From: Alphaproteobacteria bacterium
Lineage (GTDB): Bacteria > Pseudomonadota > Alphaproteobacteria > UBA2136 > UBA6156
DNA length: 64,000 nt
Direction: 5' to 3'
Assembly: GCA_049297695.1 (NCBI GenBank)
Contig: JBAQUT010000021.1
Span: 583 to 64,582, forward strand
The notes beneath the pieces are model-generated. The model worked only from the letters and a program-made list of their open reading frames with translations. It did no database searches and had not been told where the DNA came from. Positions 4,442 through 16,617 of this stretch are shown piece by piece. Position 1 is the stretch's first letter. Each line of letters begins with the position of its first letter. A program made the translations under genes and the position numbers.

Positions 4442-4458
4442 TGGCAGGGGAGACAGGA
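4442..4458. repeat. Island att direct repeat (distal copy) tggcaggggagacagga
   Basis: Perfect 17-bp match to the 3-prime end of tRNA-Trp at 15112-15128. The GC/AT composition also shifts at this point. Confidence 0.65.
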
Positions 4459-4657: not shown

Positions 4658-5029
4658 TCAACGGGTGAGAGGTAGGGCTGTAAACCATGCCCCGTCTTGG
4701 TGATAACGGGCGACATGCGCTTGCCATGCTTCGGGGGTTTTGAAGCGTTGATGAATCAATCGGTGGCAGCGTTGGCAAAGAATATACGGGGCCAGCACGC
4801 TGTAGTCTTCGGAGTGGTAACAGAGGTTTTGACGGGTACGGCATATCTCGCAAGTGCCTGTGCTGGGGGGAGGCATCAAGCCCATCTCTATGGCCAGCTT
4901 GACCGCTTGCCATACTTTAACCCGCTGGTCATGAGTAAAGCCATTGTAGGCTTTTAGTGGGGGCCATTTCCAAACGGGAATAGGCAGGCCCCGTGCTGTG
5001 GCTTGGTGAAAAATGTCGTCAATATCCAT
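4658..5029 (-). CDS. Small Cys-rich protein with CxxC...CxxCHxxxH signature (possible HNH-type zinc-finger nuclease)
   Basis: 123 aa. CEIC...CYHSED...LCQRCHRLIH resembles the C-terminal His-Me finger/HNH motif. Island-borne. Confidence 0.35.
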   Translation of the reverse strand: MDIDDIFHQATARGLPIPVWKWPPLKAYNGFTHDQRVKVWQAVKLAIEMGLMPPPSTGTCEICRTRQNLCYHSEDYSVLAPYILCQRCHRLIHQRFKTPEAWQAHVARYHQDGAWFTALPLTR

Positions 5030-5370
5030 TACTGTCTCACCACCCTCAGGAACTCAGGCGATTGGAAAAACGCCTTCACCTTGCTGCATGAGTCAGGGCT
5101 TTCGCCTGCCATCTGGGCCTTCATGTTCATGCTCACGCCTTGCATGAAAATGGGCAGGTAGGTTTTTTGGTCGCTGGATTTAGGCGGAAAATGCCTGTCC
5201 AGCCACGTACCGATTTTCTGGGCGGAGGTGTCGGTATCATGGGCGCAGCCGATGCTACGGCCCAGCATTACGGCAAAGGTGGTCATGGTATCAATCTCGT
5301 GCTCGATAGCCGCCCAGCTGAGGGGCATTGCGAGGGTGAGAATCAAAACGGCTGAGAGGGTGGTTTTCAT
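5029..5370 (-). CDS. Small secreted hypothetical protein
   Basis: 113 aa. Clear signal peptide (MKTTLSAVLILTLAMPLSWA). Island-borne. Confidence 0.4.
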   Translation of the reverse strand: MKTTLSAVLILTLAMPLSWAAIEHEIDTMTTFAVMLGRSIGCAHDTDTSAQKIGTWLDRHFPPKSSDQKTYLPIFMQGVSMNMKAQMAGESPDSCSKVKAFFQSPEFLRVVRQ

Positions 5371-5383
5371 GGCGGTGCCTTTC

Positions 5384-5509
5384 TTAAGCCCAAATCATCC
5401 AACCGATACCAACACCAAGGGCCATGCCATACAGCACCATGGCGGCGTAGACGATAACCATCTCGGAACGGTTGGCGGGTTCAACGTGGGGTGGGGGTTG
5501 GTTGGGCAT
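5384..5509 (-). CDS. 41-aa hydrophobic mini-protein (MPNQPPPHVEPANRSEMVIVYAAMVLYGMALGVGIGWMIWA)
   Basis: ATG..TAA frame found by eye; not in the ORF track (<60 aa). Single predicted TM helix. Speculative. Confidence 0.2.
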   Translation of the reverse strand: MPNQPPPHVEPANRSEMVIVYAAMVLYGMALGVGIGWMIWA

Positions 5510-5781
5510 GGGGGTTGTCCTTTGCGGGTTGAACAAAAAGCCACCCGATAAAAGGTGGCTGGGTGTTCTTAACCGTCAAAGACAACGGCGTGGTGCTTTT
5601 CAGCTTACGCCTTGGACAGCACACCACCACCCAGCCATAAGGGCTGCGTGGGCTTGCGCCCAAACAGAAAACGCACCTGTTGTGGAGGTGCCTGCCAGTC
5701 TATGAGGGGTTAAGAGCCCCAGAACGTCTTACCGTTCCAACCATAATCTAATATGTCCAACGGGATATGGGAAGGGCAAAG

Positions 5782-6156
5782 TTACTTGGTGGCCTGTTTG
5801 GCATTCTTGGCCTCAAGTCTTTCACGGCGCTTGGCTTCCCGTTCCGCTTTCCGCACCGCCCTGAACATGGCGTCAATCTCCTTGCGGGCATCCCAATATA
5901 GGAAGGCCGCTTCGGGGTCGGGTTGGTACTGACACACCTTCATTGCCATTTGGCGCTCGGCATATTGTTTGGCGGTTAGGCTTCGGGCGTGCAGGCGGGG
6001 TGGTTTGTTCTTCCGTACCTCGCGGGCAAGTTGAAGGTTTCTCCGCCGTGCCTCGTTCATGGCCTCGGTGTTGGTGAAGTTTTTACGGCCTGATTTTGAG
6101 CCGTTGGAAGTTTGTTTCTTACTCTGCTTTATCGGGGTGCCGTTTTGGTTATCCAT
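5782..6156 (-). CDS. Basic (Arg/Lys-rich) hypothetical protein
   Basis: 124 aa. Strongly basic N- and C-termini (KKQTSNGSKSGRK...REAKRRERLEAKNAKQATK). Island-borne. Possibly DNA-binding. Confidence 0.4.
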   Translation of the reverse strand: MDNQNGTPIKQSKKQTSNGSKSGRKNFTNTEAMNEARRRNLQLAREVRKNKPPRLHARSLTAKQYAERQMAMKVCQYQPDPEAAFLYWDARKEIDAMFRAVRKAEREAKRRERLEAKNAKQATK

Positions 6157-6200
6157 ATGAAAGTGCTTTCATTTTGTAGAAGTATAAAAATACATACATT

Positions 6201-7916
6201 TTAATCTTCAAACTTTTGAGAACGAATCTCTTTCATCTCTCGCTCAAACTTAGCAAGACGTTCCTTATCGGCACGAATCTCATCCTCCGACATACCCTCG
6301 TACCACCACTCCTCAGGCTCCGATGGGTTAGTTCGGTTAGGTTGGAGGGCGTTGCCCTGCGGCGTTACCGAATGCGCGTGTGTTTGCGTGGGGTTTCGGT
6401 AGGTGTGCCGAGTGGGAGTTCCCCCGACAGCTTCCCACATGGTGCAAACGGCTTCCAAATCGGCGGCGACCTCATTCGGGTTACCAAACCATTTACGCGC
6501 CCTATAAGCCTTAACAAACTTGTCAAAGTACTTCATCATTGCGTCAAAATCTTCGGTTTGGGCCTTAGCAGTGGCTATCTTTTTTTCATCCCTCTTAGCT
6601 GCCTCCCTCATTTTGCGGGAGAAGTTTTGCTCGCTGTACTTACGGTTGGCGATTTTCTCTGCCTCAGCCTCAGGTACGCCATGAGCGATAAGGTGGTACT
6701 TGTATCGCTCAAAATCATCACCCGAAGTTGCTGCAAGAAATTTGTTAATAAACATCTTCGGATTCATAAACTTGTCATACAAAGGTTCGGCTAAAGCACA
6801 AGCGAACCCTAAAGACGGGAGTGTCGGCATATTGTGCAAGCGTTTGAACGAAGCCTTTTGCAAACCAGCCCAGCTGTAGGCTATCCAAGTGGTAAACGCC
6901 AAAGCCTTATCACGGGGTAGTTCCATACGGCGTAAGGTTTTAACCCAGCCATGCAAGTGGCCAACCTTAGGAGCAAAATAGGTTTCGTAAGGGAATGCCC
7001 GCGCATAGCCCTCTTGCCATGCGGCAAGCACTGCATCGTTCAGCCTACCGTTGCTTAAAGTCTTTTCCCTGTGAGTAGCATCTACAGCCTTTTGAGTACT
7101 TTCGGGTAATGGTTTGGTTTTGATTTCTTCCTCAACAATCTCACCCTCTTCATTCACGGAGTATGTGATGATGCCGTTCTTGTGCTTGGATTCATAAATA
7201 GCCCTTTCGGTAAACCCTGAAAAATCCTGTGGTCTGTTCTGATGAGCCATATACCCCTCTCCCCCGTTCAAGGGGGAGGTAGGGGGATATAAATCAACTG
7301 GAAGATTAACAACTGGTAATAGGATGGCAGGTTTTGGTGTAGGACAGGTGGAAGGTTCTGTAACCTCTTTGGAAGAAATGGCTAACTTGCATCTTTTTCT
7401 CATTCTTGCCGTTAAACATTTGTTTTTATTAAAGGAGCTGAGATAGATAGCATCTGTAACCTTTTGTAGGGGAACAGACCTACTGGACGTAATCTCTGTC
7501 ACGTGAGGCTTATCGGAGTGTGCGTCTGGTTCAGGATAAACTGGAAAGCTGGCGATAAAAATGTTAGCTCCCTGAAAACCATTAGCCTTACGTGTAGGGC
7601 TCACCTGAATCCAACCAGCATTCTTGACTGCTTCGACTCTAGCAAATGCACTCCTGCGCGTAATACCAAGTTCTTTGGCGATTGTCTGCATCTTGATGCG
7701 GCCCGATGCTGGACCAAAGTCCATATATTTGTAGATAGCCAACAAGCACTCTTTTTGCTTTTGCGTACGGCGTGAGCGCATAAAAGCGTTACGCCAATCC
7801 ATAATCTTTGCGGGGTTTTTACGGGATATAATCTTACGCTTCTTACCAGTAAAGCTGGCGTTGATAGCGTGTCTGTAAATCTCAGATACAGAACTGTGTT
7901 TGATGGTCTCTAGCAT
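6201..7916 (-). CDS. HTH-containing protein, putative island replication initiator / regulatory protein
   Basis: 571 aa. N-terminal winged-HTH-like segment (MQTIAKELGITRRSAFARVEAVKNAGWIQV) like plasmid RepA/replication-protein HTH domains. Large C-terminal domain of unknown function. Confidence 0.4.
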   Translation of the reverse strand: MLETIKHSSVSEIYRHAINASFTGKKRKIISRKNPAKIMDWRNAFMRSRRTQKQKECLLAIYKYMDFGPASGRIKMQTIAKELGITRRSAFARVEAVKNAGWIQVSPTRKANGFQGANIFIASFPVYPEPDAHSDKPHVTEITSSRSVPLQKVTDAIYLSSFNKNKCLTARMRKRCKLAISSKEVTEPSTCPTPKPAILLPVVNLPVDLYPPTSPLNGGEGYMAHQNRPQDFSGFTERAIYESKHKNGIITYSVNEEGEIVEEEIKTKPLPESTQKAVDATHREKTLSNGRLNDAVLAAWQEGYARAFPYETYFAPKVGHLHGWVKTLRRMELPRDKALAFTTWIAYSWAGLQKASFKRLHNMPTLPSLGFACALAEPLYDKFMNPKMFINKFLAATSGDDFERYKYHLIAHGVPEAEAEKIANRKYSEQNFSRKMREAAKRDEKKIATAKAQTEDFDAMMKYFDKFVKAYRARKWFGNPNEVAADLEAVCTMWEAVGGTPTRHTYRNPTQTHAHSVTPQGNALQPNRTNPSEPEEWWYEGMSEDEIRADKERLAKFEREMKEIRSQKFED

Positions 7917-8223: not shown

Positions 8224-8778
8224 TCAGGCCCGTAGGTAGTTGTACAGGGTCTCGCGGCTGATGTTGAAGGCGCGGGCGAGTGCTGCTTTGCTCTCCCCGC
8301 TGGCGATACGGGTGCGGAGGTCTTGGGCTTGGGCATCCGAGAGTTTGAAGGCCCGCCCTTTGTACACGCCTTTCTTTTTGGCGATGGCGATACCTTCCCG
8401 CTGGCGTTCAAGAATGAGTGACCGTTCAAACTGCGCAACTGAGCCTAACAGATTTAGCAGCAGGTTTGCCATGGGACTGTCTTCGCCCGTGAACGTCAAG
8501 CGTTCCTTAACGAACTCAACGGCCACGCCCCGCTTGGTGAGTGTGTCCACGATGGTGCGGAGGTTACCGAGATTGCGCGCCAAGCGGTCAAGGCTGTGCA
8601 CCACCAGCGTATCGCCCTGCCGCACATAGGCAAGTGCCTCGGTAAGGGCGGGGCGGTCGGTGGTGGCACCGCTGCATTTATCATTGAACGTACGCTCAAA
8701 GGTCATGCCTTCTAACTGGCGCTCGGTGTTTTGGTCGGTGGTGCTTACTCTGACGTATGCGATGCGTTGGCCTGTCAT
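8224..8778 (-). CDS. Serine recombinase (resolvase/invertase family, Hin/Gin/Pin-like)
   Basis: 184 aa. Catalytic N-terminus MTGQRIAYVRVSTTDQ with the conserved Ser. C-terminal HTH (ALARAFNISRETLYNYL). Confidence 0.9.
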   Translation of the reverse strand: MTGQRIAYVRVSTTDQNTERQLEGMTFERTFNDKCSGATTDRPALTEALAYVRQGDTLVVHSLDRLARNLGNLRTIVDTLTKRGVAVEFVKERLTFTGEDSPMANLLLNLLGSVAQFERSLILERQREGIAIAKKKGVYKGRAFKLSDAQAQDLRTRIASGESKAALARAFNISRETLYNYLRA

Positions 8779-8951: not shown

Positions 8952-11114
8952 TTATCTCTCTAAGCTCTGCCGTGCTTGTATATCCCGTCCTTTATCAATC
9001 TCTTCCCGAATCATATCCTTAAGACCACCTAACCATACCCATTCCGTTAGATTGGGATAGTTACGTTCGGTTGCCGTGGCAAGGAATGGGCGTGCGGCCA
9101 TAAAGACAGCTTCGCGCTGGGAGCGTTCACGCCAGTTGAACCCATAAAGCCGCTCATCTCCCTGTAAAGCATCAGGGCGGAATCTGGTACGGTCAATGCG
9201 CCCCAGCTCTAATTCCTTGGCTTTTTCTTTCCAATCTTTTTTACCCGTTATCCATGGAATGTAGGACTGGATAGCCTCGCCTTCCAATGGATGAGGTGCC
9301 CGACGCCATAATCCCTGAGCTTGCCGAAACGTAAAGCCCATTAGAGAGCCGTTCAACATATTTTCACACCATTCAACCGTTACTACTTTGGCCCAATCAT
9401 CCTTGGCAAAGTTGGGGGCGTGAATCACGTTAACGAGCTGCTGACGAAGCTCATCAGGAGCTTTATCAACATCAGCAAGTGGCTGACTTAAGTATTTTTC
9501 AATGGTAGCTTCGTCCACAAGTGCGACAATATGGCTTCCGTTGTACAGGCATGCACTCCCATAACCATGAACGCAGTGCCCTTGAATATCGGCTTGTTTT
9601 CTTAGCTCCAGCTCATCAAGAAGCGGGAACATCCACACCGCTTGACCGTCTTTATGGAATCGTCTGGGTGGTGCTATGGGGAGCCACATAGTCGGCGGGA
9701 CATACGTTTCATTTTCTCCATTACCCGTCCGAATAGCCTCTAACCTGTTACGGAACATGCGAAGTTGTTCTGGAATATGATAACGATGGCTAGCCTCCAA
9801 AACATCCCACATGCCGTATTCAGTCAGCATTTTTCCAAGAAGCTTATTTGTCAGCGTCTCCCAACCTACTGCTGGAATCTCACGCGCATGCAGGGAAGAG
9901 AGTACATTCACCTTAGGGCCAACAAGCCGCCCTAAAATACTGCTTTTCCAATCTTCAATATCCCTGACGTTTTCAGCGGTACCGAGGGCTTGCATCTTCG
10001 TTAAAACCTGTTGCCAACGGGACTTAGGGTCTTTGACGGCGGTGGCGGTTTCTTTCCAGCACTCACTCCAATCTTTGCCCGTCACATCAACAAAGGACTT
10101 GATATAACGCATGACAGAGGTAAATGCTGACCATTCTGCTGCTGTGGTTGGATACCATGTGGGGTCTATACCATTCAGAACATGGGCATAAAGACGTAGG
10201 TCATCGTGAGATAATCCTGCTGGAACGGGGCCACGTAATCCTAAAAACTGAACCGCTGTTTTACTGGGTGGCTCTTTGACAGTTTGCGCAAGAAGTCGGG
10301 CTACACCATCAAGCACCGATTTACCTTCATCCACGTCTTGCGAGACTTGAGGGAGAATGTGGACAAGGTGTGGTAAGGCGGTGCCCGCTTCCAAACGGTG
10401 TCGCCCGTAGGCAAGCCAACCGTAAATATCCCTGTTATCCAAGCCCTCATCCGTTAAAAATCGGACAATCTCAGGGTTTAGGCATTCCACAAATGCTTGG
10501 AACAAGGCACTTTTACGAACGGTTTCAACCTGCTTAAAAACATTAACAAGGTCTTCTTTCCCAGCAGCAAAGAGCCTCCTATCGCCATGTATGGTGCCTG
10601 CGGCGGCATCATGGCTACGCATATGCTCCTCTAACCATGTGACACCATACTCAACTAACCGACCAATATGGTTGTGCGTTGGGGCGTAGTGAGCGGTGGT
10701 GGAATGTTCCTGAACGAACAAGCCAAGTGCTGTTTGATGTTGTCCTGTGGCGTAAGCTCGCCCCATCACATCAAATCGCCCTTCAGCGATTTCTTCAACC
10801 AAGCCACGAAGTTCTGACCGATTCACTTTTACGCGCCCTGCATGGATTTTGCCATTTTGAGCTTCAACCAAAACTTCTATACGGTTTGGCCGTTTGCCTT
10901 GTGAGTACGTAAGACTTTGCGCCAAGACTGTCCGATGAGGTTTACGGTCTCCGTATGACACCAGAATATGGGGGGCTTTATTATCCCATGCGGTATCAAG
11001 TTTCAGGGCACGAACTTTATCGTCAGGTAAAAAAATGCCTCGGGATGCCAACCATGCCGTAACCCCTTTTTCCAGAAGGTTTGTTACAGGAGGGCGTACG
11101 ATTTTGTTTGGCAT
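8952..11114 (-). CDS. Large hypothetical protein, possible PcfJ-like domain (conserved GHC motif)
   Basis: 720 aa. ...ADIQGHCVHGYGSACLYNGSHIVALVD... carries a GHC motif described for the PcfJ family. No other recognisable catalytic motif. Island cargo. Confidence 0.45.
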   Translation of the reverse strand: MPNKIVRPPVTNLLEKGVTAWLASRGIFLPDDKVRALKLDTAWDNKAPHILVSYGDRKPHRTVLAQSLTYSQGKRPNRIEVLVEAQNGKIHAGRVKVNRSELRGLVEEIAEGRFDVMGRAYATGQHQTALGLFVQEHSTTAHYAPTHNHIGRLVEYGVTWLEEHMRSHDAAAGTIHGDRRLFAAGKEDLVNVFKQVETVRKSALFQAFVECLNPEIVRFLTDEGLDNRDIYGWLAYGRHRLEAGTALPHLVHILPQVSQDVDEGKSVLDGVARLLAQTVKEPPSKTAVQFLGLRGPVPAGLSHDDLRLYAHVLNGIDPTWYPTTAAEWSAFTSVMRYIKSFVDVTGKDWSECWKETATAVKDPKSRWQQVLTKMQALGTAENVRDIEDWKSSILGRLVGPKVNVLSSLHAREIPAVGWETLTNKLLGKMLTEYGMWDVLEASHRYHIPEQLRMFRNRLEAIRTGNGENETYVPPTMWLPIAPPRRFHKDGQAVWMFPLLDELELRKQADIQGHCVHGYGSACLYNGSHIVALVDEATIEKYLSQPLADVDKAPDELRQQLVNVIHAPNFAKDDWAKVVTVEWCENMLNGSLMGFTFRQAQGLWRRAPHPLEGEAIQSYIPWITGKKDWKEKAKELELGRIDRTRFRPDALQGDERLYGFNWRERSQREAVFMAARPFLATATERNYPNLTEWVWLGGLKDMIREEIDKGRDIQARQSLER

Positions 11115-11123
11115 GGAAAAATC

Positions 11124-11726
11124 CTATAGGGTTGCGTTTCTGTCGGGCAACTCAACCCCAAAAGTTTGAGCAACAACCTGCCCTACCTCAGCAGGGTTCA
11201 AGGCCGTACTGGCTGAGCGGCAAGGTACTTGGAAGAACATGTCCTGCTCCCATTCCCCACAATACGCAGCACAAGCCTGATACATACGGCTGGCAGGGGT
11301 ATAATCAGAGTTATTTAGTTGTGGCACCAGATACACTTCTTCTCGTTCAGCCTCCATGCCTCGCCTGTGTGGCAAAGCCTTCATCATTCGCAACGCGTTG
11401 GAGCTATTCAAAAAAGTAGTGATGTCAACAGGGTCGCCTTCTGCACGAACAGCCTGATACTGACGCAAAAAGGCCGTTACCGCCTTGGCTCCACCTAAGG
11501 GGACAAACACACGGGCTAAAACTCCATTTACAGCATTTTCTGCCTCGGCAAACTCCAAAAACTCCATCAGGGAAAGAGGGTTGATATGCCCTACCTGTGC
11601 CGTGTCCATCATGGACGCCAAGCCATCGGGGTCGTTGTAACGGTTAGCCAAAGGTGCGAAACGGGCCAACACGAACCTGTGTGGCATACCTTGAAGTTCA
11701 ATCAGGCGAATCGGTAGCATGTACAC
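11124..11726 (-). CDS. Hypothetical protein (island cargo)
   Basis: 200 aa. 9-bp gap to the downstream 720-aa gene. No recognisable motifs. Confidence 0.5.
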   Translation of the reverse strand: MYMLPIRLIELQGMPHRFVLARFAPLANRYNDPDGLASMMDTAQVGHINPLSLMEFLEFAEAENAVNGVLARVFVPLGGAKAVTAFLRQYQAVRAEGDPVDITTFLNSSNALRMMKALPHRRGMEAEREEVYLVPQLNNSDYTPASRMYQACAAYCGEWEQDMFFQVPCRSASTALNPAEVGQVVAQTFGVELPDRNATL

Positions 11727-11796
11727 CTCTCCTATTTGAGCGTTGCATACAACAATATCGCTAATAAAACAAGAGGAAATCTATTTTAATACTACA

Positions 11797-12591
11797 CTAA
11801 ATCCCCAACCCCATCTGGCCCGTTTGGGGAAGCTGAACAATCCCGTTGATAAGCCACGTATCTGGCCAGCGAGAATGGGTACCCATGGCAAAAAGAAGGC
11901 CCTTGGCAGGTAGCTCGTGCCCCCAGCGTTCCTTCATCATTTCAAGGGTTTTTTCTTTACCGTACAATCTTTCCCATTGGAAATAGGTTGCCTCGGTTTC
12001 CCAATCTTGGCAGGTGCCTTCACGTTCACCGTCAGCAATGATATATTTGTATTTGAAGCGGTAAGGGCATGGTTTGTAGGGCAGTACAGGTTTCATGAAA
12101 AGGTCAGCTTGTCTGGAATAAAGGTCAAACTTTTCCCGTTCCTCCTCATACTCAGCGGGAGATTTCTCCTCCACGATAAACCCCTTAATGGTCGGGCGAA
12201 TGAAGGCAAAACTTCGGCCAGCCTCCCGTTCTGCTACAAGGCTTGTTTTAACCATCGGGTCTATCAAGCCAAATCGCTGCGCTTCGGGCAGAGTTCCAAC
12301 AACGGCGAGAGATTGGTGCTCTACACGGCGACTTTCAAGGCGGGCATCGTCTTTGGGGGTTCGCCATTGATATTTCACAACATCCCAACGGCGGAACTGC
12401 TGGGCGGCGTCAAGACTACGGAAAGTAATCGGGTAAAGCCGTACCCAATGGCCATCACGGGTGATAGCAGCTGTACAAACGGTTTCACCATGCTTATCAC
12501 CCAACTGTGGGGCGGCTTTGACCATGATAATGGCCTCGTCCGTTTGAGGGTCAAGCAGCGAGGTGGTTTGGGATGATAAATGGTTGGCCAT
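11797..12591 (-). CDS. Hypothetical protein (island cargo)
   Basis: ORF 11797-12648. Start chosen at MANHLSS (12591), which overlaps the stop of the upstream DUF488 gene by 41 nt. No recognisable motifs. Confidence 0.45.
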   Translation of the reverse strand: MANHLSSQTTSLLDPQTDEAIIMVKAAPQLGDKHGETVCTAAITRDGHWVRLYPITFRSLDAAQQFRRWDVVKYQWRTPKDDARLESRRVEHQSLAVVGTLPEAQRFGLIDPMVKTSLVAEREAGRSFAFIRPTIKGFIVEEKSPAEYEEEREKFDLYSRQADLFMKPVLPYKPCPYRFKYKYIIADGEREGTCQDWETEATYFQWERLYGKEKTLEMMKERWGHELPAKGLLFAMGTHSRWPDTWLINGIVQLPQTGQMGLGI

Positions 12592-13069
12592 GCAACGAGA
12601 TTCCTGTATCAACAGTAAGATTATGCACTTGCATGCCCGTAAGTTCAAGGAGGTGGTTAGCTACAATGCTACGGTGGCATTCGCAATGATTATGTTCAAA
12701 ACACATAAGGCAGACGGGAGCTTTGCGGGCCATTTCGGCAGCAACATGTAAATCTGTCTGGGCGTATGGAGTTGTCATGTGTTGGCCGAAAATACGCCGA
12801 AACAGGCGATAATCTCCTGCACGGGCAGCCTCACGGCCCGCCTTTGGGTCTCCTAACCCGCGCAAGTGAACATAACGAATACCATTAGCCTCCAATGTGG
12901 CCTTCAAGATAGATTTTGAAAAGCCTTTCTTGCGGGAGAGAGGCATCTCACGAACATCCAACAGGGTATGTATCCCCGCATCTTGTAGGGTCAGCACAAA
13001 ATCCTCCACACGGGAGCCTTCGTAACCAATGGTGTAAAGCGTTTTTTCTAATGCCATGGCCAACAGCAT
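12551..13069 (-). CDS. DUF488-like protein with C-terminal Cys/His cluster
   Basis: 172 aa. N-terminus LYTIGYEGSRVEDFVLTLQDAGIHTLLDVREMPLSRKKGFSK matches the DUF488 signature. C-terminus CLMCFEHNHCECH suggests metal binding. Confidence 0.55.
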   Translation of the reverse strand: MLLAMALEKTLYTIGYEGSRVEDFVLTLQDAGIHTLLDVREMPLSRKKGFSKSILKATLEANGIRYVHLRGLGDPKAGREAARAGDYRLFRRIFGQHMTTPYAQTDLHVAAEMARKAPVCLMCFEHNHCECHRSIVANHLLELTGMQVHNLTVDTGISLHGQPFIIPNHLAA

Positions 13070-13195: not shown

Positions 13196-15007
13196 TTAGG
13201 ATTTCTTATAGGGTTTGAGGTGTTTTGTCACGGCTTCAGGGTATGTGAGTTTACAGATGGCCTCGTGCAGTTTTTCCAGTGATATGTCATCGGTGTATCC
13301 TTCCGTTACCGAACCTGCGGTACTGTGGCCTAGGAGAGCTTGCACGGTATCCATGGGGATGCCACATTCACGGCGGCATGTGCTGGTAAACGTATGGCGA
13401 AAACTATGGAACACCAGCTTTCTGCGTTTAAGTTCAATGCCCTCAAGGTACGTACGAAAAAGTCTTGTAAAGTTTTGGGAATACGTGCCATCCCATCCAC
13501 GCTCAATCTCTTCAAAAATACGCTTGCGGCCTTGTTTGGTCATATCGGAAACAAAACGGGTTATACCCAGTTCAATCAGTTTGGGGTGGATGGGTATTAC
13601 GCGTTTGCTTGATGCACTTTTTATGCTCTTACCCTCAATACCGCCCTCATCATCGTTGACATCAAAATACCATATATCGTTAGCTTGCTTGATGTCTCCG
13701 ACAGCCATCTGGCAAATCTCACCTGACCGCATCCCCGTGTATAGGCTAATCAAAGGCACCCAATACAGTGCGTCCATGGTGATGGTATCGCCCTTTTTAT
13801 AACGGTATTGGTAGATTCCGTCTGGTTGGTGGCCTGTGTATTGAGGGGTGTTGAAAAACTTAACTAAATCGTCGGCTTTATAGGATTCACGTTTTTCATT
13901 CGATTTGGCTTTATCCATAGCCTCAAAAGTTGGCAAAACTTGACTGGCGGTACGCTCGCTGGTCATAAGCCACTTTTTAAAACTACGTAGGTTAACGTTA
14001 TATTTATCTTGGTTAGCAGGTGAAAAAGTGGGGAGCTTTTTGCCTGCCTCTAAAATCTCCGCCATGGGTTTGCCAGCGAGTTGTTTAAGTTTGGTGTAGT
14101 TTTTGGGCACTTGGCCAAGGTTGCTGGAAAACTCCATCAAGTGTTTGTTGGTAAACTGGTTCACTTGTTTGATGTTCGGGAACATCTCACGGAACAGGGT
14201 AAAGCAGGATTCAATATCCAGTACCGTTTTTATGTTTTTTCCTTTGTTTCGCTTCTCGGTGGCGTAGGCCTTCATGGCCTCCTCCAAGGTTTCAGACGTA
14301 TCATGCGCCTTGGCAGGTGGCGCAATGGTAGGCTGGGTATCAGGTGGAAGGACGTAGCGGGGTAAATGAATCTCGCCGTTGCTCAGGGTTTCTGGCATGG
14401 GGTGGATAATGTCCGTATCAATCCCTTGGAATACGGCATCATTTATTTTGGCCTCGGCATAATCGCCTTTGGCCTTGGCAAGGTAGATGCGGGCAGCTTC
14501 AATCTCGGCTTGGGTGAACAGCCTGTCCAGATAGTTTTCAAGCTCGCGCTCGCTGTCTACAAGTTTGGTGAGAATGAGTCTTTTCAGGTAGGAGCGCTGC
14601 TGGGTGTCGGGGGGCGTTTTCTGACGCAGCTTTTCGCGTTTGGCGGTGAGAGATTCCACCGTCTCGGCAACGTCTTCGGCGAGTTGTTCAGTATCAAACA
14701 CTTCAAGCCACATGTTACGTTCAGCTAACGTATCGGCAAAATGCTCACGCGCAATACGCTTGAGGGCCTTAACCACGTCTGGGTTGGAGAGCTGAAGGTC
14801 TACGTGAAGAAGTTGGGCCATGGCGATTTGGATCTTTGCTACAATGACTTTAGCAGCCCGACCATCGGTTGTCTTGAGGGAAATACATAAACTGATGCGG
14901 CGGGGGCATCCCTGCCGTTTGGGCAGCATGGCACGAAAGTAAAACTTCTGCCCGCGCTGGAAAAGGTACGGGGTTTTGGTGGCCTGTAACTGATAAACGT
15001 CTCCCAT
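13196..15007 (-). CDS. int: Tyrosine-type site-specific integrase
   Basis: C-terminal catalytic region with R...HSFRHTF...Y motifs. Start set at MGDVYQ (15005-15007) because the longer ORF runs into the tRNA. Adjacent to tRNA-Trp. Confidence 0.85.
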   Translation of the reverse strand: MGDVYQLQATKTPYLFQRGQKFYFRAMLPKRQGCPRRISLCISLKTTDGRAAKVIVAKIQIAMAQLLHVDLQLSNPDVVKALKRIAREHFADTLAERNMWLEVFDTEQLAEDVAETVESLTAKREKLRQKTPPDTQQRSYLKRLILTKLVDSERELENYLDRLFTQAEIEAARIYLAKAKGDYAEAKINDAVFQGIDTDIIHPMPETLSNGEIHLPRYVLPPDTQPTIAPPAKAHDTSETLEEAMKAYATEKRNKGKNIKTVLDIESCFTLFREMFPNIKQVNQFTNKHLMEFSSNLGQVPKNYTKLKQLAGKPMAEILEAGKKLPTFSPANQDKYNVNLRSFKKWLMTSERTASQVLPTFEAMDKAKSNEKRESYKADDLVKFFNTPQYTGHQPDGIYQYRYKKGDTITMDALYWVPLISLYTGMRSGEICQMAVGDIKQANDIWYFDVNDDEGGIEGKSIKSASSKRVIPIHPKLIELGITRFVSDMTKQGRKRIFEEIERGWDGTYSQNFTRLFRTYLEGIELKRRKLVFHSFRHTFTSTCRRECGIPMDTVQALLGHSTAGSVTEGYTDDISLEKLHEAICKLTYPEAVTKHLKPYKKS

Positions 15008-15111
15008 CCCCCCTCCTGCGTCACAAATCTTGCGCCGCCTGCGCCACAAAATCGTGGTGTTTGGGTGATTGGAGTAAAGTATCTTAATAGTTTGAATAAT
15101 ATAACAAATAT

Positions 15112-15187
15112 CTGGCAGGGGAGACAGGACTCGAACCTGCAACCAAAGGTTTTGGAGACCTCTACTCTACCAATTGAGCCACTCCCC
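15112..15187 (-). tRNA. trnW: tRNA-Trp (anticodon CCA)
   Basis: 76 nt. Acceptor stem AGGGGAG/CTCCCCT. Anticodon loop CTCCAAA. T-loop TTCGAGT. Discriminator G plus an encoded CCA. Confidence 0.85.
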
Positions 15188-15366
15188 TGTGGATGTGGGT
15201 ATGCCACGGTTTGGGGGTGGGGGTCAAGATACCCTGTGGCCTGTATGGAGTGCCTGCAAAAGCATCTGATTTTATACAGTTTAACCCAGCAAAACCGCCA
15301 CACGGGGTGCCTGTATTCGGGGCAGCGGCCTCGCCCCTTGCGCAAGGCTGGCGTAAGGTGGGGCCC

Positions 15367-16617
15367 ATGAGATTGCGCCACCACTTTGCCGCATGGGCGT
15401 TTGCCGTGGTGCTGGCGCTGCCTGTGCACGCGGCGGATTGGGGCCAAATGGCCATCGTCTCCAGCACGCTGGGGGTGGATGCAGGGCGGCTGTGCGTGGG
15501 AGCCAGTCAAGCAGGTAGGCCCTCCGACATGGGCTGCCCCACCTACGCGCCGTTTGTGAGCAGCGGAGGCCTTTTAACGGGAAGTACAGCGAGTTTTGGC
15601 GGGCTTACGGTGACGGGTTCGGCCAGTATGACCACCGTATCGGCCACCAACATTTCCGCCACCTATGTGGATGCCACCCGTAACGGCACAGTCAGCGCCA
15701 CCTACGGGTATTTTAGCCAGATTAGCGGAAGTATCCCCGCCAGCATGGTGACGGGGATGGATGCCGCGGCGCGTGGCGACCGTATCAGCACCACGGGTGT
15801 GGCCGATGGCAGTGGGCTGGCCATGGTGGCCACCGATGGGAACGTGATTAGCTTCACCACCAGCGGCGTGAACACCGCGTACTTGGATAGCAGCGGGCGC
15901 TACATTGGTCCTGGTGTGAGCATCACCACGTACAATGGTGTGAGCAGCACGAACGGGTATTTTAGCGGGAATGTGGGCATTGGGACGACGGCGCCGACGA
16001 AAGAAGGTTTGACGATTTCTGGTACCAGCACGCCGGGGTTGCGTGTTCAGGCGAGTAACGCGTGGGATTTCTTTACGTCGGCAGTAGGTGGTCGGCTTGG
16101 AATTTATGATGCCACGAATTCAAGAGAACTGATGACATTCAGGACATCTGGCAAAGTTGGTGTGTCAAACACGTCGCCAGTTGCACAATTTGATGTAACC
16201 GGCACCATTAGCGCCAGCGATATTGTACAGGTGGGGAGCACCACCACGATTGCCTGTGGCAGCGGGTTGGAGGGCGGTATCCGCTACACCAACGTGAGCG
16301 ATACCTTGCAGATTTGTACCAGCGGCGGATGGAAGAGTTTGGTGAGCGGCACGGTAGCTAATACGACCACAGGTACGGGCACAACCAACTATGTGGCCCG
16401 TTGGACAGGTACGAGCACGTTGGGGACAGGTATTTTATATGATGATGCCACCAATGTAGGGGTTGGAACTTCAACACCTACGGCCCGTTTGGAAGTTTCC
16501 GGTACCTTCCGCGTGGCCCGCAACACCACCAGCACGGACACGTGCGACGATGGATCGCTGGTGGGCACCATGCGCGCCAACCCCACCACGGGGATGATGG
16601 AGCTGTGCGCCCCGTAA
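15367..16617 (+). CDS. Secreted Gly/Ser/Thr-rich repeat protein (tail-fibre-like / adhesin-like)
   Basis: Signal peptide MRLRHHFAAWAFAVVLALPVHAADW. Repeated G-x-S/T and VGIGTTAP-type motifs typical of fibrous beta-structured proteins. C-terminal Cys pairs. Confidence 0.55.
   Translation: MRLRHHFAAWAFAVVLALPVHAADWGQMAIVSSTLGVDAGRLCVGASQAGRPSDMGCPTYAPFVSSGGLLTGSTASFGGLTVTGSASMTTVSATNISATYVDATRNGTVSATYGYFSQISGSIPASMVTGMDAAARGDRISTTGVADGSGLAMVATDGNVISFTTSGVNTAYLDSSGRYIGPGVSITTYNGVSSTNGYFSGNVGIGTTAPTKEGLTISGTSTPGLRVQASNAWDFFTSAVGGRLGIYDATNSRELMTFRTSGKVGVSNTSPVAQFDVTGTISASDIVQVGSTTTIACGSGLEGGIRYTNVSDTLQICTSGGWKSLVSGTVANTTTGTGTTNYVARWTGTSTLGTGILYDDATNVGVGTSTPTARLEVSGTFRVARNTTSTDTCDDGSLVGTMRANPTTGMMELCAP

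Follow-up and report, generated by a model that had tools for sequence, protein, structure and literature searches.

This analysis concerns four genes occupying about 4.1 kb (positions 8952-13069) of a 64,000-nt window of DNA (the whole stretch analysed) from a metagenome-assembled genome annotated as alphaproteobacterial, where they form part of the cargo of a genomic island integrated at a tRNA-Trp gene. We conclude that the 4.1-kb stretch probably consists of two unrelated cargo modules of this island and not of one system: a gene pair, P1 and P2, that belongs with the phage defence candidate (PDC) PDC-M19 and would act against invading elements, and a second pair, P3 and P4. Judged by sequence comparison, the conserved unit is P1 and P2 only. 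A preliminary description of this DNA had treated the genes as a single four-gene cassette in a combination that it did not recognize. The genes are as follows:

12551-13069, minus strand: P1, 172 aa, DUF488 protein
11797-12591, minus strand: P2, 264 aa from its ATG
11124-11720, minus strand: P3, 198 aa from the ATG at 11720 (200 aa from a GTG, 11124-11726)
8952-11114, minus strand: P4, 720 aa, divergent PcfJ-like protein by transitive homology

All four are co-directional and lie on the minus strand between a tyrosine integrase gene and a serine resolvase gene. P1 and P2 overlap by 41 nt, P2 and P3 are separated by 70 nt (76 nt from the ATG start of P3), and P3 and P4 by 9 nt. This orientation and spacing, given in the preliminary description, were confirmed from the list of open reading frames (ORFs).

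A conserved two-gene unit

The combination of P1 and P2 proved to be a catalogued one. Specifically, P1 matches the PADLOC models for PDC-M19A (PDLC04505, E = 1e-34; PDLC04504, E = 1.5e-23), and P2 matches the model for PDC-M19B (PDLC04508, E = 2e-35) over profile positions 7-266 of 269. In both P1 matches the profile is covered in its C-terminal part only (positions 148-289 of 294 in the best), and some PDC-M19A members carry an N-terminal extension that P1 lacks. Assignment of the pair to PDC-M19 was made from these component hidden Markov model (HMM) matches together with gene adjacency. PDC-M19 corresponds to cassette CAS_00089 (FAM_02799>>FAM_02993, listed count 174) of Payne et al. (bioRxiv 10.1101/2024.01.29.577857), whose 145 phage defence candidates come from a guilt-by-embedding approach applied to genes found inside BREX, DISARM and type I restriction-modification systems. 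The name 'PDC-M19' was not found in the main texts of the literature. The suggestion that the stretch carries cargo of the defence-island type was borne out as to the type of cargo, with the pair being a catalogued phage defence candidate.

Conservation of the neighborhood was surveyed in 80 loci containing a P2 relative, mostly from Alphaproteobacteria, taking one genome per species and up to 8 kb of flank per side. A DUF488 homologue lies directly upstream of the P2 relative and on the same strand in 78 of the 80. The exceptions are one locus in which P2 starts 178 nt from the contig end (L044) and one with room for an upstream gene yet no P1 match (L037). A relative of P3 or P4 was found at none of the 80 loci (tblastn, E ≤ 1e-3), and the four genes were never co-located in the other genomes surveyed; the four-gene cassette is therefore not upheld. 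Nucleotide homology between the window and five other loci likewise extends only over 13043-11797, that is, from P1 through the P2 stop codon.

At three close loci, where the DUF488 gene again comes first and overlaps the P2 homologue by 41 nt (two loci) or 44 nt (one), the downstream gene differs, being an MmeI-type restriction-modification gene (L001), housekeeping genes or a gene for a CoiA_N protein. A complete Wadjet JetABCD stands directly upstream of the pair in L002-L004. We considered a recurrent third gene downstream of the pair and rejected it, as the largest cluster of downstream neighbor families accounts for 2 of 73 loci. The only recurrent neighbor is an N6/N4 DNA methyltransferase, encoded on the same strand immediately before the DUF488 gene in 8 of 73 loci (L029, L033, L050, L056, L060, L068, L072 and L079) and carrying a ParB_N domain in four of the eight; methyltransferase and pair together may constitute a three-gene, restriction-modification-like variant. 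Including these eight, approximately 17 of 146 immediate neighbors match PADLOC models, the others being AbiEii, GajB, mad3, PD-Lambda-5, ShosA, PsyrA, a C5 methyltransferase and two single-gene PDC candidates. A tRNA gene occurs within 8 kb in 10 of 60 loci and abuts the pair in three.

With respect to P1, assignment to DUF488 is clear from Pfam (PF04343, E = 3e-29, 102.6 bits against a cut-off of 22.2, profile positions 2-120 of 121), and a partial match was obtained to the 'active DUF488-N3a' model (PF22751, 35 bits against a cut-off of 27, E = 2e-08, positions 54-116 of 118). The DUF488 likeness noted in the preliminary description thus stands, whereas the Cys/His block that it took for a tail, CLMCFEHNHCECH, sits inside the domain. 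An alignment of 84 homologues reveals invariant residues in the N-terminal part of P1 (G15, Y16, D38, R40, S45, R46, G49, F50, K52 and Y66) as well as in the remainder (H68, G73, D74, P75, G78, R79, H97, C123, E125, C131, H132 and R133). Within the Cys/His block only C123, E125, C131 and H132 are conserved, R133 following immediately after; these five are each kept in at least 98% of the homologues, and C120, H126, H128 and C129 of the block are not invariant. The retained residues correspond to C-x-E ... C-H-R, which we take to be the DUF488 hallmark motif. The family has reportedly been placed in the rhodanese-phosphatase superfamily, and roles in DNA-end processing during virus-host conflict are said to have been predicted for it.

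P2 has at least 850 relatives, none of which carries a Pfam domain. A structural model built from a 42-sequence alignment (predicted local distance difference test score, pLDDT, 85.6; predicted template modeling score, pTM, 0.81) places an oligonucleotide/oligosaccharide-binding (OB) fold in the N-terminal half and contains a helical insert. In Foldseek searches, 190-320 columns were aligned to replication protein A (RPA) filaments, Teb1 AB, Oxytricha TEBP-alpha, CST, HIN-200 domains (AIM2/IFI16/p202) and baculovirus LEF-3; scores in this set against tandem-OB proteins combine a probability of ~1 with a template modeling (TM) score of only 0.25-0.44 and 6-13% identity. On the basis of this model, P2 is a predicted tandem-OB nucleic-acid-binding protein, the first OB fold being firm and the second probable, and it is not featureless, although the preliminary description listed it only as an unknown. 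Invariant residues in the alignment include K25, E36, C39, R51, R58, D82, R84, the C194-Q-D-W-E198 segment and H239. In the NCBI annotation P2 begins at M23 and has 242 aa. The start that gives 264 aa appears more likely on comparative sequence grounds, because the homologues are 262-265 aa long, their alignment begins at residues 1-6 and the overlap with the DUF488 gene is ~41 nt.

The pair also travels on plasmids and phages. Relatives of P2 are present on 27 plasmids (22-52% identity), of which 13 are conjugative, in hosts that include Rhizobium, Bradyrhizobium, Burkholderia, Pseudomonas, Streptomyces, Arthrobacter, cyanobacteria and Sulfolobus/Saccharolobus; the annotation often shows a DUF488 or ParB-family gene at or next to the P2 match. 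On pRL8, the DUF488 and P2-like genes are convergent and lie near a giant DEAD/DEAH helicase gene and a toprim/DUF3991 gene. Seven Gordonia phage records also contain P2 relatives. In phage Nymphadora (L095, NC_031061), the immunity repressor gp44 is immediately followed by the P2-like gp43, and repressor and integrase flank the group. Gene 42 of this phage, convergent with gp43, encodes a DUF488 homologue 40% identical to P1 (gene pair at locus coordinates 5810-6262, minus strand, and 4965-5819, plus strand); its deposited label, 'HipA toxin, toxin-antitoxin system?', appears to be wrong. Taken together, these observations are strong evidence that DUF488 and P2 form a functional pair, since the association outlasts rearrangement of the genes and extends from bacteria to archaeal plasmids and one group of temperate phages.

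The ORFan P3 and the PcfJ-like P4

In terms of the second module (8952-11720), P3 is an ORFan: a word-indexed search of 5.8 billion sequences returned only P3 itself, and no match was obtained in Pfam, NCBIfam, PHROG, PADLOC or PDB sequences. It is probably a real gene because it has a coding-type GC profile. The ATG at 11720 is the more likely start; it is preceded by a Shine-Dalgarno sequence, AGGAGAGG, and the NCBI gene call is also 198 aa. No P3-like partner was found beside relatives of P4 by tblastn, blastp or phmmer at relaxed thresholds.

P4 likewise retrieved only itself from 5.8 billion proteins in the word-indexed search. An exhaustive HMMER scan (phmmer, 1.84 billion representatives) identified 24 remote relatives of 22-30% identity over a core of approximately residues 190-555. 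The resulting 25-member family alignment shows P322, W367, W477, L504, H513 and C514 to be invariant, with V515, Y518 and C522 near-invariant; the latter part corresponds to the GHC block that the preliminary description likened to PcfJ. That likeness holds for the family and not for P4 itself. Specifically, 20 of the 25 members match Pfam PcfJ (PF14284) at E ≤ 0.1, the best at 1.2e-12, and in ten members scanned singly the PcfJ matches fall on the segment aligned to H513-C514 of P4, six of them at 36-48 bits against a gathering cut-off of 25. P4 has no match to PF14284 even at E ≤ 10, and its two closest relatives are also below the cut-off (P0123, no match; P0124, 12.3 bits). P4 can thus be called PcfJ-like, in a divergent form, only by transitive sequence homology. 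P4 gave no match in Pfam, NCBIfam, PHROGs or PADLOC, nor in phage records searched by tblastn, and P3 and P4 alike found nothing in PADLOC-DB; nothing useful on PcfJ function was found in the literature. Searches of PDB sequences and profiles with P1, P2, P3, P4, A1 and A2 as queries returned nothing significant.

The structural model of P4 (pLDDT 77.7, pTM 0.64) is largely helical, with beta-rich parts at approximately residues 49-96 and 484-599. The invariant H513-C514 falls in an alpha/beta part of the model, a region that may resemble GNAT folds. An invariant His-Cys dyad in a possibly GNAT-like domain suggests that P4 could be an enzyme, possibly acyl-transferase-like or a thiol enzyme.

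The genomic setting of P4 relatives differs from that of the pair. The relatives are solitary genes. Two, in different genomes, occupy the slot from sodB to DUF498-secF-secD-yajC (L013, L097); two more, again in different genomes, fill that from prs to rplY-pth (L012, L098); and another sits beside umuDC, behind MGMT-like and NUDIX genes. No relative of DUF488, P2 or P3 was found at the P4-relative loci examined, and two weak tblastn matches to P4 on Rhizobium and Bosea megaplasmids fit the same picture. Occupation of the same chromosomal slot in different genomes suggests that the relatives in the sodB-secDF and prs-rplY lineages are vertically inherited and have a non-mobile role, unlike defence cargo.

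Possible roles of the pair and alternative explanations

Our preferred reading, of two unrelated cargo modules, proposes the following for the pair. Module A (11797-13069), comprising P1 and P2, is a member of PDC-M19, a tightly conserved and horizontally mobile pair whose flanks vary and sometimes hold defence genes. Like tandem OB folds of the RPA and HIN type, P2 would bind single-stranded DNA (ssDNA) or DNA ends, here those of an element that is entering or replicating, and would hand this substrate to P1. The Cys/Glu...Cys-His-Arg site of P1 could then carry out phosphate transfer or end-processing on a nucleic-acid terminus or a nucleotide. The outcome would be a block to replication or packaging of the invader, making the pair an anti-phage or anti-mobile-element module. 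An anti-invader role is favored by the Wadjet, MmeI and methyltransferase genes beside the pair, by the way in which the PDC set was assembled, by the variable flanks and by the placement of the phage copy in a prophage immunity region. Module B, the ORFan P3 with the PcfJ-like P4, would be tied to Module A by adjacency on one island only.

A more ambitious version of this proposal is that PDC-M19 is a genuine immune system with a mechanism not previously described in bacteria, in which an RPA/HIN-like tandem-OB sensor of invader ssDNA or DNA ends is coupled to a DUF488 enzyme of the rhodanese-phosphatase type that modifies nucleic-acid termini chemically, and in which P3 and P4 may here serve as an accessory pair. 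We offer this only tentatively, as a possibility that falls short of being probable.

Several points weigh against our preferred reading. The tandem-OB interpretation of the C-terminal half of P2 derives from model-based alignments with low TM scores (0.25-0.44), and its many invariant polar residues suggest that P2 may be more than a passive binder, perhaps itself an enzyme. The chemistry invoked for DUF488 is that reportedly proposed by Burroughs & Aravind 2023. Most neighbors of the pair are ordinary metabolic or housekeeping genes, so that it is only modestly enriched in defence islands. Its presence on conjugative plasmids and phages could just as well mean that it serves the mobile element. 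The four genes lie on one strand with short gaps, have similar base composition at third codon positions and show no clear break between P2 and P3, such that co-transcription and an island-specific link are possible. Finally, PDC-M19 is among 145 candidates that their own authors call untested (bioRxiv 10.1101/2024.01.29.577857).

The first alternative follows from the plasmid and phage copies. The pair might serve the mobile element that carries it, as an establishment, anti-restriction or DNA-repair module that coats and processes the element's own single-stranded or broken DNA as it is transferred, integrated or induced. Its presence on conjugative plasmids (13 of the 27 plasmid records), archaeal plasmids and temperate phages is as this explanation would have it, as are the helicase and toprim/DUF3991 genes near the pRL8 copy, neighbors elsewhere that include UmuDC, a DNA ligase and a DprA-like protein, and the fact that the closest structural matches of P2 are RPA- and SSB-type proteins. 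However, many chromosomal copies have no mobile-element genes nearby. The phage copy, moreover, occupies the lysogeny/immunity region, the part expressed in the prophage state, a position typical of prophage-encoded defence and not of early establishment genes. The pair also stands beside Wadjet and MmeI and, according to Payne et al., within BREX, DISARM and type I restriction-modification systems. On balance, we consider a service role for the mobile element rather unlikely.

A second alternative returns to the idea of one system, as a single island-specific operon in which P3 and P4 would have joined a PDC-M19 core as additional subunits for sensing or effector action, giving a novel four-gene form. 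The single strand and the successive gaps of -41, 70 and 9 nt are in its favor, as is base composition. All four genes have a coding-type profile, with G+C contents at the first and second codon positions (GC1 and GC2) of ~0.60 and ~0.42, and share a third-position value (GC3) of 0.44-0.53, compared with 0.70-0.73 in host genes of the flanks. From this difference in GC3, the four-gene cassette is compositionally foreign. In addition, no promoter-like or convincing terminator-like site was found by scanning the minus strand between P2 and P3; promoter and terminator counts overall did not exceed shuffled expectation and are uninformative on operon structure. Against a single operon stand the lack of any P3 or P4 relative at the 80 PDC-M19 loci, the end of cross-locus homology at the P2 stop codon, the solitary and syntenic placement of P4 relatives among housekeeping genes, and the absence of relatives of P3. 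Adjacent cargo on islands is, moreover, commonly co-transcribed with no functional link. We therefore judge functional recruitment of P3 and P4 to be quite improbable.

The weakest alternative, that P1 and P2 are a toxin-antitoxin or addiction pair stabilizing the island, draws on the overlapping, mobile two-gene layout and on the 'HipA toxin' label given to a DUF488 gene by phage annotators, but is hardly credible given that this label lacks homology support for what is a DUF488 homologue, that both proteins exceed typical type II partners in size and are rich in invariant, catalytic-looking residues, that the convergent arrangements in pRL8 and Nymphadora are atypical of such operons, and that neither protein has a Pfam DNA-binding domain of the antitoxin type.

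The island and comparison with known systems

The island context itself, between integrase and serine recombinase at a tRNA gene, was confirmed by identification of the tRNA-Trp gene and a 17-nt repeat. The island is ~10.7 kb long and is bounded by direct repeats of 17 nt copied from the 3' end of tRNA-Trp. Its principal features are:

4442-4458, no strand assigned: far-end repeat copy, TGGCAGGGGAGACAGGA, the distal island limit, an exact 17/17 match to 15113-15129
8224-8778, minus strand: serine recombinase (resolvase + HTH_7; PF00239, 4.8e-36), flanking the four genes
13196-15007, minus strand: tyrosine integrase of the island (Phage_integrase + DUF6538; PF00589, 6.8e-14; PF20172, 6.7e-05)
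15113-15188, minus strand: tRNA-Trp (CCA), the integration target (ARAGORN; Rfam tRNA, 67.4 bits)
15113-15129: repeat copy within tRNA-Trp, its 3'-terminal 17 nt, TGGCAGGGGAGACAGGA (repeat family D10)

The integrase ORF as listed begins with a TTG at 15142 (13196-15142), where initiation would overlap the tRNA; translation probably starts instead at the Met at 15007. The resolvase has a host-like GC3 of 0.70, against 0.54 for the integrase, 0.49 for the gene of a 571-aa protein and 0.44-0.53 for the four genes described here, and this contrast indicates that the island may be a mosaic.

The other cargo lies at 6201-7916, 5782-6156, 5029-5370 and 4658-5029, all on the minus strand. Proteins of 571, 124 and 113 aa encoded there had no match in the family libraries. 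The 571-aa protein is a singleton in a collection of 15 billion proteins, in which P1-P4 are each singletons at 90% identity as well. The N-terminus of the 113-aa protein resembles a signal peptide, and a Cys/His-rich protein of 123 aa has as its sole match a weak one to a PHROG 'endonuclease' (1e-4). An intergenic segment of the island (5549-5636, minus strand) matches sRNA-Xcc1 of Rfam below threshold (RF02221, 37.8 bits against a gathering cut-off of 53, E = 9e-4). Just outside the island, beside tRNA-Trp, is a 474-aa ORF rich in Gly, Ser and Thr (15193-16617, plus strand).

In terms of significance, the discovery first suggested for this stretch shrinks: its system-like part is another copy of a catalogued two-gene candidate, and the remainder would be unlinked orphan cargo. 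What is gained is a sharper picture of PDC-M19, as a DUF488 protein with an invariant CxE...CHR motif and a partner of ~260 aa predicted to have an OB fold, to resemble tandem-OB proteins and to bind DNA. For DUF488, a family with no known function that includes E. coli YeaO, this supplies a biochemical hypothesis, namely a phosphate-transfer enzyme working with a sensor of DNA ends or ssDNA. The long PcfJ-like proteins at syntenic housekeeping loci form a separate, small puzzle.

Among known systems, PDC-M19 is the closest. Its two component HMMs match P1 and P2 strongly, and the genes of these, as at the homologous loci examined, lie side by side on one strand and overlap; PDC-M19 has the status of a candidate only, and membership of P1 and P2 does not in itself establish defence. 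At the level of families, P1 scores above threshold for both the DUF488 model (PF04343; E. coli YeaO) and that of the N3a subclade (PF22751). Members of DUF488 are not known to have a demonstrated activity; the superfamily placement is a reported one, and the end-processing role a reported prediction. Among the structural relatives of P2, RPA DBD-A/B, Teb1, TEBP-alpha, CST, the HIN-200 domains and LEF-3 all lack its helical insert and its cluster of CQDWE and H239. P4, for its part, departs from PcfJ (PF14284, a family of unknown function named after PcfJ of pCF10) both in size, with a domain model of 147 positions set against a protein of 720 aa, and in setting: PcfJ belongs to conjugation operons, whereas the relatives of P4 are long, solitary genes of alphaproteobacterial chromosomes.

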